From assembly GCA_041389065.1 (NCBI GenBank), contig JAWKSM010000001.1, forward strand, positions 80,320-144,319: a stretch of DNA of 64,000 bases. Direction: 5' to 3'. Of the stretch, positions 56,411 through 58,337 are shown piece by piece; position 1 is the stretch's first letter, and each line of letters begins with the position of its first letter. A program made the translations under genes and the position numbers. The stretch is from Minisyncoccota bacterium. GTDB taxonomy: Bacteria > Patescibacteriota > Minisyncoccia > Phycocordibacterales > CSBR16-119. The notes under the pieces were generated by a model, which was given only the letters and a program-made list of their open reading frames with translations, was not told the DNA's origin and did not search any database.

Positions 56411-56489
56411 TTAATTAAATTGATAATAAGTCTGTGCTCTCGGTAGGACGCTTCGCTATCTCACTCGTAAGCATAGCATACTCTTTTTA

Positions 56490-57335
56490 TTACCACGTAT
56501 GGTCTTTTGAAATAAAGAAATATTTCTTGAATTTTTTCTTCCATTTCTCTGCTTCTTTTTTACTTTTCATTAGAACTAATTTAGTTTTATAGTTATTTTC
56601 GGTCAAATTCCTTAATTCTTCAAGCGCCTTTGGTGTCATTGTTTCGTTTTCTTGGAAAATTTTATCTAGTTTATCACCAAAACTTTTTTCTGTTGTAACG
56701 ATAAATACATAGTCTTCTACAACATTTACATAAAGATTCTTTCCAGCGCCTATATCAAGGCCTGTACCTATTTCGAGCAGTCCCTTATTCCATTCCTTTT
56801 GAAATTTTTTGTCTAGTGTTGTGTTTCCACCCATTATCCAGAGAACCTTCCCCTTGCCATGATTATATCCGTTAACAAAATTCTGTAAGAAAAATTCCTC
56901 AGAATGAGTGCGTGTGTAGATAAGCCATTCGTGTGGGTGATATATGAGAATTGGGGTGTTTGAGGTCGCATTATCAAAGACCACGTTTCCACTATGCGCC
57001 CAATAAATACCCATAAGGTTTGGATTTTTGAATTTATAAGTAATCTTGTCCCCATCTTGCATGTCTAGAATATTTAGTGTGTCAGATTGAATATGTTTAT
57101 CTATAAATCCTCGCATTCTTTTAAGCCATATTCTGTTTAGGGTATAGATTGATCCGTTTTTGTGGATGATTTCTTCTTTTTTAAGATCGCGTAATATTCT
57201 ATAAAAACTTTCTTTTGATGGAGTGGATTCTTGATCTCTCAGTCTTTTAAGTAACGAGGGACCATTTAGCGGGTTTTTATGAAGTATTTCTACTATTTTT
57301 TCTTCGGTTTTATTGCTTTTAGTACCAAAAATCAT
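56490..57335 (-). CDS. winged-HTH regulator-like protein (paralog of 28089..28943)
   Basis: Shares DGDKITYKFKNPN and HPHEW blocks with the 28089 product; lies inside the tRNA-Arg-flanked islet. Confidence 0.5.
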   Translation of the reverse strand: MIFGTKSNKTEEKIVEILHKNPLNGPSLLKRLRDQESTPSKESFYRILRDLKKEEIIHKNGSIYTLNRIWLKRMRGFIDKHIQSDTLNILDMQDGDKITYKFKNPNLMGIYWAHSGNVVFDNATSNTPILIYHPHEWLIYTRTHSEEFFLQNFVNGYNHGKGKVLWIMGGNTTLDKKFQKEWNKGLLEIGTGLDIGAGKNLYVNVVEDYVFIVTTEKSFGDKLDKIFQENETMTPKALEELRNLTENNYKTKLVLMKSKKEAEKWKKKFKKYFFISKDHTW

Positions 57336-57476
57336 AATATTATTATAGCATTAGTGTTAATAAATAACACTAATTTAGTAAAACACTACATTATTTTTAC
57401 ATAGTCAATATAATAGTGTAAGGTTATATCAGAGTTTGGATTTTGTTGGTCTCGGCCGAACCAACAAAAACAAACT

Positions 57477-58091
57477 ATGAACCACACAAAAGAAGTACTT
57501 ACTTTCGGAGTCAGTCTCTATAACTCTTACTTTACGGAAGATCGAATAATCAGGCTTTTGCAATGTGTTAATAGTCCTGATCGCAAAATTTATCTTGTAA
57601 TAGTTGACTTACCAGCTACTCACAACCTGAGGGCTATTGGCAAGAATGATTCTTATATTGCAAAGAAGGTGCGTCAACATGGCAACAACATCACTAATCG
57701 ATGCAGGCGTGCCATCGAAGCTTCTGGGGTAGATGCCACCGTCATGACTTTTGAAGGAATCGCCTCTTCTGCAGTATATAGATATGGAGTTCTACAATTC
57801 CACAAGCTCTATAACGAGGATGCAAAGTTTCGTCTTGATGCAAGGAAAGTAACATCGGATGTTTTGTTCAACAAGTTGGGGGTAACAGCTGACGAACAAC
57901 AAATAGACATTGCCGTTTCTTTCCTTTTAGAAGAGCTATCATTCTTCTGGTGGGGAGATGAGATACTGGGTGAGGATCACATGGTCAATGCTTACCATAG
58001 TGAAATGAAAATCTTGAGCGACCTCATAGCCGGCGCTTACAACATCGAAACGAGGCCCAGTATCTCACACAAGGTGATCTCTGTTGAATAA
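57477..58091 (+). CDS. cyclodipeptide synthase (CDPS) family protein (tRNA-dependent); GC-rich
   Basis: N-terminal VLTFGVSLYNSYFTEDRI matches the CDPS catalytic-Ser motif (AlbC GISAGNSYF / YvmC VGISPFNSRFSEDYI); later FLLEEL matches the YvmC YYLLEEL (Y/E catalytic pair region); size about 200 aa. Confidence 0.6.
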   Translation: MNHTKEVLTFGVSLYNSYFTEDRIIRLLQCVNSPDRKIYLVIVDLPATHNLRAIGKNDSYIAKKVRQHGNNITNRCRRAIEASGVDATVMTFEGIASSAVYRYGVLQFHKLYNEDAKFRLDARKVTSDVLFNKLGVTADEQQIDIAVSFLLEELSFFWWGDEILGEDHMVNAYHSEMKILSDLIAGAYNIETRPSISHKVISVE

Positions 58092-58265
58092 CCAACCCAC
58101 ATATAAGCTAGAAGCGTTTACAAAAGTAGGCGCTTCTTTCTTTTTGTGGACATGTCGTGGTTGCAATATATTCCTGACAGAAATTTTGCGACCCCTTTCC
58201 TGTTCGATTCCTACCTCGAATATATATTAAAAATTCCCAACAAGAAGTTGGAACTTTTAACATTG

Positions 58266-58337
58266 TGCTCTCGGTAGGAATCGAACCTACATTTTAACTT
58301 CCGCAAAGTCATGTCCTATCCATTGAACGACGAGAGC
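58266..58337 (-). tRNA. tRNA-Arg (anticodon apparently GCG)
   Basis: GCTCTCG/CGAGAGC acceptor, D-arm GTTC-AATGGATA-GGAC, anticodon arm TGACT-TTGCGGA-AGTTA, T-arm GTAGG-TTCGATT-CCTAC. Confidence 0.65.

Follow-up and report, generated by a model that had tools for sequence, protein, structure and literature searches.

A cyclodipeptide synthase islet at the 3' end of a tRNA-Arg gene and structured mini-elements downstream of tRNA genes in Candidatus Paceibacterota

The 64-kb window studied here (the whole stretch of DNA that was analysed) comes from a metagenome-assembled genome of Candidatus Paceibacterota, within the candidate phyla radiation. Its interval 56433-58279, at the 3' end of a tRNA-Arg(GCG) gene, is bounded by a 16-bp direct repeat and carries a cyclodipeptide synthase (CDPS) gene with a divergent regulator gene. 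We propose that this interval is probably a non-autonomous islet resembling the elements known as cis-mobilizable elements (CIMEs), in which a small structured backbone, here called type A, holds a regulator-CDPS cargo and has been mobilised in trans. This proposal draws on the base-resolution comparison with a sister genome, on empty tRNA-Arg sites in other relatives and on a near-identical copy of the islet in a divergent host. The type A backbone itself belongs to a larger set of mini-elements found downstream of many tRNA genes. Loci used for comparison are referred to by L numbers.

The islet and its distribution

The 16-mer TGTGCTCTCGGTAGGA occurs exactly twice in the window and still only twice when up to two mismatches are allowed. 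Two copies were reached in 0/100 dinucleotide-preserving shuffles. The original prediction was right about both copies, and only its placement of the right-hand one (58265-58280) was one base off, the correct position being 58264-58279. Its derivation of the repeat from the tRNA also holds, as the right copy consists of the last 14 nt of the minus-strand tRNA-Arg(GCG) plus two trailer bases, the tRNA part covering the last T-loop base, the 3' strand of the T-stem, the 3' strand of the acceptor stem and the discriminator. The same 16-mer was also looked for at the locus of a regulator paralog (28089-28943), where it is absent. With the intact tRNA at the proximal end, the partial 3' copy at the distal end and one orientation for both, the geometry fits integration at the tRNA 3' end. 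In addition, the distal copy abuts the upstream region of a coiled-coil gene, and in the empty locus L007 the tRNA itself abuts that region. The distal copy is therefore followed by the ancestral flank downstream of the tRNA, as the logic of an attR site implies. Independent contigs from other samples (L025, L026 and L028-L030) reproduce the arrangement at 99.4-99.8% identity, which excludes an assembly artefact.

To place the islet among relatives, species-representative genomes were scanned with the flanking 156-aa membrane protein, which returned 11 loci of the same neighbourhood (RuvX, tRNA-Ser, the 156-aa gene, tRNA-Arg(GCG), rpsT, RuvA and Fpg). The regulator-CDPS pair is present in 2/11 of them. 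It is missing from the sister genome L005, in which the flank proteins are 97-99% and the flanking DNA 93-97% identical to the window. At base resolution, window positions 56487-58188 (1,702 nt) stand in place of 67 nt of L005, and homology between the two genomes resumes exactly at 58189. Both copies of the 16-mer are also present in L005, where they lie about 200 nt apart and enclose a structured element of about 185 nt. Since the same repeat there surrounds an element free of cargo, it cannot be taken as the footprint of the CDPS cassette itself, as had been predicted. The empty tRNA-Arg site that was sought in relatives was found, with no repeat, in L007, L008, L009, L012 and L039; in the first four of these the tRNA is directly followed by the next gene or a terminator. 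From these comparisons the interval appears to be a real variable and mobile islet.

A second host adds to this picture. The contig L027/L036 matches the window at about 99.7% identity between a point inside the regulator gene and the tRNA, and nothing is private to it except five compensatory changes in the anticodon stem of the tRNA. Beyond the tRNA 5' end it cannot be aligned to the window, and its neighbouring gene encodes a positional homolog of the 156-aa protein with 24% identity, the most divergent of all loci. In L038, from another sample, the neighbouring gene and the variant tRNA are identical to those of L036, and the sequence after ...CCTACCGAGAGCACAAT runs into a terminator. The empty L038 and the window-type islet of L036/L027 part right after ...GAGAGCACAAT, and the stretch common to both backgrounds is 32 nt long and includes the 16-mer. 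We read L038 and L036 as an empty and an occupied allele in a distant host, with the apparent crossover in the repeat region. This suggests horizontal transfer over about 32-73 nt of tRNA homology, a length that is short for homologous recombination. A near-identical islet in a divergent host also indicates recent mobility, so that the description of the element as decayed is doubtful. The wider claim of integration into the tRNA gene is sound as to the tRNA-derived repeat, the insertion at the 3' end, the empty sites and the variable cargo, and mistaken in that the repeat is that of a mini-element and not of the cassette.

Positions of the features are collected in Table 1. Variation around the islet extends to two further segments. 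The 120-aa coiled-coil gene (56048-56410) is replaced in L005 by an unrelated segment of about 365 nt with an open reading frame (ORF) on the opposite strand, so the interval from tRNA-Arg to rpsT is variable on both sides of the repeat. A second strain-variable segment, 58903-61008, is missing from L005 and has the 156-aa gene on one side and the mini-element that follows tRNA-Ser on the other; it encodes a 193-aa protein, a 269-aa membrane protein and a sigma factor like those of the extracytoplasmic function type, and no repeats were found at its junctions.

Table 1. Features of the tRNA-Arg(GCG) islet, in window coordinates
Feature	Position	Strand	Basis or remark
Distal direct-repeat copy A1, attR-like displaced tRNA 3' end	56433-56448	-	Minus-strand reading TCCTACCGAGAGCACA
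Type A 3' arm (...TATGCTATGCTTACGAGTGAGATAGCGAAGCG on the minus strand)	56449-56486	-	Together with A1, 98% identical to L005 over 54 nt
TrmB-like transcriptional regulator, 281 aa, cargo gene 1	56490-57335	-	AlphaFold2 model, Foldseek
Divergent control region	57336-57476		Operator-like palindrome and GC hairpin
Operator-like palindrome TTAGTGTTA-ATAAA-TAACACTAA	57351-57373		Symmetrical changes (T..A to C..G)
Invariant GC hairpin in the CDPS 5' leader	57441-57469		Kept across hosts
CDPS, NYH subfamily, 204 aa, cargo gene 2	57477-58091	+	Profiles, alignment
CDPS intrinsic terminator	58110-58146	+	12-bp stem and T-run
Type B-like 3' half (GCAAAATTTCTGTCAGGAATATATTGCAACCACGACATGTCCAC on the minus strand)	58147-58188	-	Travels with the cassette
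Type A 5' arm, GGGGTC motif and a'	58189-58215	-	Homology with L005 resumes at 58189
a' (inverted T-loop, T-stem and acceptor; GTTCGATTCCTACC on the plus strand)	58202-58215	-	Inverted repeat I1
tRNA-Arg intrinsic terminator	58235-58253	-	Between tRNA and a'; terminator scan; kept in L005
Proximal direct-repeat copy, attL-like	58264-58279	-	Inside the 3' end of the intact tRNA-Arg
tRNA-Arg(GCG)	58265/58266-58337	-	Intact, no encoded CCA; ARAGORN; Rfam RF00005, 60.2 bits

Cargo genes and the search for a recombinase

The gene that had been predicted to be GC-rich and CDPS-like scores above the curated cut-offs of PF16715 (102.4 bits, cut-off 27) and TIGR04539 (124.2 bits, cut-off 45), and its GC content is 42% against 36% for the window. 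Aligned to YvmC (3oqh), BtCDPS and AlbC, the protein has the catalytic residues S13 and N16 (in GVS13LYN16), E153 and Y173-H174. Its homologs form a tight family of 27 proteins with 66-100% identity, including the identical cluster P0001, and a metagenome scan with the CDPS profile returned one short locus only.

The other gene had been described as a winged helix-turn-helix regulator with a paralog, and both parts are borne out. The N-terminus of the 281-aa protein gives a weak match to a PadR-like winged helix-turn-helix profile and no Pfam TrmB hit, and a paralog of 28% identity lies at 28089-28943 (tblastn E 3e-40). The AlphaFold2 model (predicted local distance difference test score 83) has an N-terminal winged helix and a C-terminal effector-binding fold like that of phospholipase D (PLD). 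The best Foldseek match in the PDB is the Pyrococcus furiosus TrmB structure 3qph (E 2.9e-5), with a low TM-score of 0.31 over both domains; further matches are to NucT, Nuc and other PLD folds at the C-terminus and to PadR and Fur folds at the N-terminus. The HxK(x)4D (HKD) motif was not found in the protein. Because the modelled fold is TrmB/PLD-like and this motif is lacking, the 281-aa protein is most simply understood as a regulator and not as the missing recombinase.

Several observations suggest that the two genes belong together. The spacer between them is 139-141 nt long and nearly invariant in 7 hosts, and a promoter-like site for the regulator is predicted at 57360-57331, within the control region. 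Homologs of the regulator with 44-48% identity at unrelated loci (L022, L023) are again divergent from a CDPS gene. As the pairing is kept in unrelated neighbourhoods, regulator and CDPS appear to form a functional module. Two related arrangements were seen elsewhere. The paralog at 28089-28943(-) is divergently paired with a 167-aa protein (29036-29539(+)) that has no family match in Pfam, NCBIfam or PHROGs, and this pair may be another regulator-plus-effector module. At L023 5001-5980, in an unrelated genome, tRNA-His(GTG) lies convergently right after the regulator gene of a distant regulator-CDPS pair, with no tRNA-end copies found nearby.

Sequence identities differ between the parts of the cassette. 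Between hosts the regulator keeps 86-95% identity, where the housekeeping flanks have 65-70%. CDPS alleles show a star-like pattern, with 74-80% identity in every pair, next to a regulator and control region that are nearly fixed. The regulator has 84% identity at four-fold sites between L004 and L031, where the CDPS has 52%; between L004 and L001 the CDPS reaches 66% and the flanks 24-35%. GC content stays constant whatever the GC of the host, at 33-38% for the regulator and 42-48% for the CDPS. Both the mosaic of four-fold-site identities and the host-independent GC point to exchange of cassette parts between lineages, and the CDPS alleles in particular seem to have been swapped.

Which enzyme might have moved the islet is a separate question. 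The islet holds two genes only, CDPS and regulator, in agreement with the earlier statement that it lacks an integrase; remnants of an integrase were sought by tblastn and inspection of ORFs within the islet, and none were found. The large ORFs of the window, apart from that of one Xer-like tyrosine recombinase considered below, encode core functions (dnaA, dnaN, PNPase, CCA-adding enzyme, RNase Y, PolA and PilB), with no transposase among them. Searches of phage, plasmid and IMG/VR collections turned up no sequence that carries the mini-element or either of the cargo genes; two pattern matches in IMG/VR (L017, L035) were set aside as chance hits in GC-rich unrelated contigs. A paper on phages of Patescibacteria (10.1101/2024.03.08.584096) contained nothing relevant. 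Larger islands bounded by tRNA-end repeats were found in no locus beyond the species of the window itself.

Mini-elements downstream of tRNA genes

The backbone of the islet is one example of a wider phenomenon. Structured elements of about 110-190 nt, belonging to at least three scaffold families (A, B and C), lie just downstream of tRNA genes. Each opens with the T-arm and 3' end of its local tRNA in inverted form and has that 3' end again, as a direct copy, at its close. In the type A element of L005, read in the sense of the tRNA, the order is tRNA terminator, inverted arm a', GGGGTC motif, two hairpins, a third hairpin, ...GAGTGAGATAGCGAAGCG and the direct copy. Type A copies follow tRNA-Arg(GCG) in L005, L006, L011 and L014 and tRNA-Lys in L007 and L009, the last 16 nt of tRNA-Lys differing by one base from those of tRNA-Arg(GCG); the arm a' co-varies with each genome's own tRNA. 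Types B and C are found at tRNA-Lys, Ser, Val, Arg(TCG), Arg(TCT) and Arg(GCG), each with a copy of the tail of its own tRNA. Examples within the window are 13461-13622 and the trailer of tRNA-Ser near 61046-61067. Type B combines conserved junction motifs with sequence-variable helices. The direct repeat starts in the T-loop throughout, at its last base in type A and at ..CGA|T.. in types B and C. The T-loop constitutes one class of tRNA integration site (Williams 2002, as cited in PMC9897764), which this constant starting point matches.

We counted such copies across 68 tRNAs, requiring at least 11 nt within 300 nt downstream and using mismatched pairs of tRNA and downstream region as the control. 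A direct copy of the tRNA's own tail was present at 22% of them compared with 1.7% in mismatched pairs, and an inverted copy at 24% compared with 4.7%. In the consensus fold of type A, a helix between a' and the direct copy closes the element around the hairpins. Here 95.9% of cells were paired, against 35-55% when the partners were slid, and double changes occur in 7/35 pairs; the covariation score, from only 7 sequences, was 0.173 versus 0.110±0.012, with 0/500 shuffles reaching 0.173. G.U pairs appear on the tRNA-sense strand.

The mini-elements had no match to an Rfam family, and no description of them was found in the sequence libraries or papers searched. The mini-element family is a more novel lead than the islet itself. 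Tentatively, the elements might be an undescribed class with at least three families that inserts at many tRNAs by a target-copying or nucleic-acid-guided mechanism, or else an RNA that mimics the tRNA 3' end, although we would give this proposal considerably less weight than the reading of the islet as a mobilised element. The flanking copies follow whichever tRNA is targeted while the scaffold stays constant, and a fixed attP hardly explains such a pattern. A candidate second tRNA on the plus strand downstream of the CDPS, thought to be decayed, was rejected: it had no Rfam support at E<=10, and the piece is the inverted arm a'.

The position of the cassette relative to these elements differs between genomes. 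The window and L004 share a hybrid junction, GGGGTC|GCAAAA, which joins the type A 5' arm to a type B-like 3' half. This half is homologous to GGGGTCGCG-AAAATTTTCTGAAAGAAAATT-...GTGACC in type B copies and forms the right end of an ungapped 1,706-nt unit common to L031. There the unit, 89% identical to window 56484-58189 and flanked by a 23-nt repeat, splits type A inside the tRNA terminator and hence elsewhere than in the window. L001 and L002 have an intact type A element between tRNA and cassette, so that both repeat copies lie on one side. L018, L021 and L032-34 are free of repeats, and there the CDPS terminator immediately adjoins the tRNA 3' end (the junction in L018 reads ...GGGAGCAC|AAAAAGAAAGAAGCG). 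At L004 7014-8841, tRNA-Arg, CDPS and regulator form a block with a clean inversion against the collinear flanks on both sides; L009, L012 and L013, which have no cassette, show an inversion of the tRNA by itself. L010 6530-6860 is a deletion scar in which a 9-nt microhomology, AAAGAAGCG, joins the end of a type B-like element to what is left of the regulator gene, its last ~20 codons; this implies loss of the cassette by illegitimate deletion. Microhomologies of 6-9 nt are found at the novel junctions in general (GGGGTCG, TAAAAAG, ACAGAAA and AAAGAAGCG). These arrangements would be compatible with small elements having accumulated in tandem at a single tRNA site, with illegitimate deletions later on.

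Regions in which a tRNA is followed by such an element include 13346-13622 and 61046-61331 of the window and others in loci L004-L015. Two unusual tRNA regions were also noted. At 15154-15451, tRNA-Pro is flanked by partial copies of itself, namely 15-nt copies (positions 15-29) at -53 and -131 and a 16-nt T-arm copy at +60, which may represent a degenerate tandem copy before tRNA-Gly. At 1254-1327(-), ARAGORN reports a tRNA with undetermined anticodon ('ca', tRNA-???), which Rfam scores as a normal tRNA at 61.8 bits.

Alternative explanations and known systems

According to the reading we favour, the 16-bp direct repeat would belong to the type A backbone, and the 67-nt interior of that mini-element, which forms two hairpins in L005, would have been replaced in the window strain by 1.7 kb of cargo, comprising the TrmB-like regulator, the divergent NYH-type CDPS, the control region between them and one half of another mini-element. 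The enzyme acting on the T-loop/3'-end site of the tRNA might be a recombinase provided in trans, and the excised circle junction (attP) would read ...GATAGCGAAGCG-TCCTACCGAGAGCACA-ATGTTAAAAGTTCC.... Later tandem accretion, microhomology deletions and one inversion could then have produced the arrangements seen among genomes. The synthase is predicted to condense two aminoacyl-tRNAs into a cyclic dipeptide, while the regulator may bind the palindrome between both genes and sense a small ligand through its PLD-like domain.

Several points weigh against this proposal. The occupied allele of the second host is a single 1.7-kb metagenome contig that stops short of the islet's distal end, and a related sample also contains window-type strains. 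A chimeric L036 is therefore possible, though the shared 32 nt are well below k=141. No integrase or autonomous parent with these ends was found in the 39 loci or in phage, plasmid and IMG/VR collections, and the sole tyrosine recombinase of the window, a Xer-like protein (5854-6825(+)), is encoded about 50 kb from the islet. This protein scores 258 bits with the XerD model, below its cut-off, and 239 bits with the archaeal-type XerA model, above the cut-off of 220; it is a candidate for the trans-acting enzyme. In addition, the cassette has no flanking repeats in L018 and L032 and may be part of the ancestral chromosome there. Finally, a plain integrase model does not account for the inverted copy a'.

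Alternatively, the cassette could be ancestral and always convergent with tRNA-Arg(GCG), so that only mini-elements insert and the differences between genomes arise by deletion, gene conversion and homologous recombination, with no site-specific integration of 1.8 kb. We regard this as a serious explanation that is nevertheless rather improbable. The simple, repeat-free arrangement in L018, L021 and L032-34 is what it would predict for the original state, and both host clades have the cassette at the same locus. The scar in L010 retains the regulator's last codons, all novel junctions have microhomologies of 6-9 nt, and the 23-nt repeat of L031 could delete the cassette and regenerate an element of the L005 type. 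What this explanation accommodates poorly is the second host, where an islet of about 99.7% identity stands beside a 24%-identical flank and has a matching empty allele. It is also at odds with the mosaic patterns at synonymous sites and with a distal repeat copy that abuts the ancestral flank of the tRNA, and for these reasons we continue to prefer mobilisation of a non-autonomous islet.

It has also to be considered whether the mini-elements are structured RNA genes in the sense of the tRNA, in which the 5' end would pair with a 3' end resembling the T-stem and the acceptor 3' strand, with the 16-mer kept by selection for mimicry or pairing and one such gene merely disrupted by the cassette. 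The closing helix (GGTAGGA/TCCTACC) and three hairpins with compensatory changes have the appearance of a functional RNA, as do the G.U wobbles on the tRNA-sense strand, the conserved junction motifs beside variable helices in type B, and the terminator that often follows the direct copy; moreover, every copy matches its own tRNA at Arg, Lys, Ser and Val sites. Yet no upstream promoter is predicted, the elements lie past the tRNA's own terminator, and their presence varies within species, for example at tRNA-Lys in the window versus L005. What comes after the direct copy is ancestral flank or terminator, in keeping with insertion. No Rfam family matches and the covariation comes from a small alignment, and taken together these points make this account unlikely and leave the trans-mobilised islet as the better explanation.

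An origin of the 16-mer by chance, low complexity or artefact is scarcely credible given the shuffles, the homology of the distal copy, which covers 54 nt in L005 and is seen in further genomes too, and the independent contigs, even though 16 nt is short and T-arms are alike between isoacceptors (Arg/Lys T-arm matches were found). Three groups of known elements were likewise set aside. A miniature inverted-repeat transposable element (MITE) derived from an insertion sequence (IS) is not indicated, since the termini are local tRNA copies and the large ORFs of the window include no transposase. An integron cassette with attC does not suit the sequence, as GTTCGAT misfits GTTRRRY and the Xer-like gene, 50 kb away, is below the cut-off for integron integrases. 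IS200/IS605 ends, a group II intron, a retron, an IS110 bridge RNA and a TnpB/IscB guide RNA were judged improbable on the grounds of their architecture, there being no cognate enzyme gene and an unfit repeat geometry.

To our knowledge, Patescibacteria have tiny genomes with few documented mobile elements, and their gene exchange is poorly understood. The locus described here offers a concrete and testable case of such exchange, in which a 1.8-kb secondary-metabolite module is present or absent between sister genomes and near-identical in a divergent host, each time at a tRNA-Arg 3' end and with no recombinase gene of its own. About a fifth of the sampled tRNA genes carry small structured elements ending in a copy of their own tail. 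Should such elements prove to be mobile backbones or genes for RNAs, they would open a new way to study genome plasticity across the candidate phyla radiation; if they insert by copying their targets, they could moreover act as landing pads through which small cassettes, the CDPS module among them, pass between distant hosts. In annotation they also give rise to false tRNA fragments. Biochemical work has hardly touched this phylum, and the NYH-type CDPS described here is uncharacterised.

Among known systems, we know of no conjugative system in the patescibacterial host, which sets the islet apart from CIMEs. These are att-flanked islands that have lost their integration and transfer genes (PMC6323972; reviewed in PMC5704250). 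The islet resembles them in having attL/attR-like repeats at a tRNA 3' end and no integrase or transfer genes, and in forming accretion-like tandem arrays together with other small elements of that site. It differs in its size of only 1.8 kb with backbones of 110-190 nt, in having inverted as well as direct tRNA-end copies, and in that no cognate autonomous integrative and conjugative element or prophage with the same att was found. The intact tRNA with a partial 3' copy, the start in the T-loop and the existence of empty and occupied alleles are shared with islands and prophages that tyrosine integrases insert into tRNA genes. For integrated elements there is ample documentation of partial tRNA copies that serve as attR and of subsequent inversions (PMC9897764), and the inverted block of L004 parallels the inversions reported there. 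In contrast to such islands, the islet has no integrase and is 10-50x smaller, and the same repeat bounds a cargo-free element of about 185 nt. The mini-elements are like MITEs in being small, non-coding, multi-copy, structured and strain-polymorphic, but their termini copy the local tRNA 3' end instead of being fixed inverted repeats, and the duplication is 16-22 bp.

With respect to the cargo, a CDPS from Parcubacteria RAAC4_OD1_1 (ParcuCDPS) has already been characterised (PMC7613923, PMC5816076). The window CDPS shares the tRNA-dependent CDPS fold and the catalytic residues with AlbC, YvmC and ParcuCDPS, but the histidine-using CDPS of PMC5816076 is of XYP type, whereas the window enzyme is NYH-type and, at 204 aa, N-terminally short. 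Unlike known CDPS clusters, it is without tailoring enzymes and has only a TrmB-like regulator as partner, on a mobile islet by a tRNA. By fold, this regulator is similar to P. furiosus TrmB (3qph) in combining a winged helix with a C-terminal PLD-like effector domain, and as in the sugar-responsive TrmB family it is divergent from its presumed target, with a palindromic operator-like site between the two. It differs from that family in having no Pfam TrmB hit at the sequence level and in its partner, a CDPS in place of genes for sugar transport or metabolism. What is new here is the small scale, the lack of a detected cognate autonomous element, the combination of inverted and direct tRNA-end copies, and the association of an NYH-type CDPS with a TrmB-like regulator.

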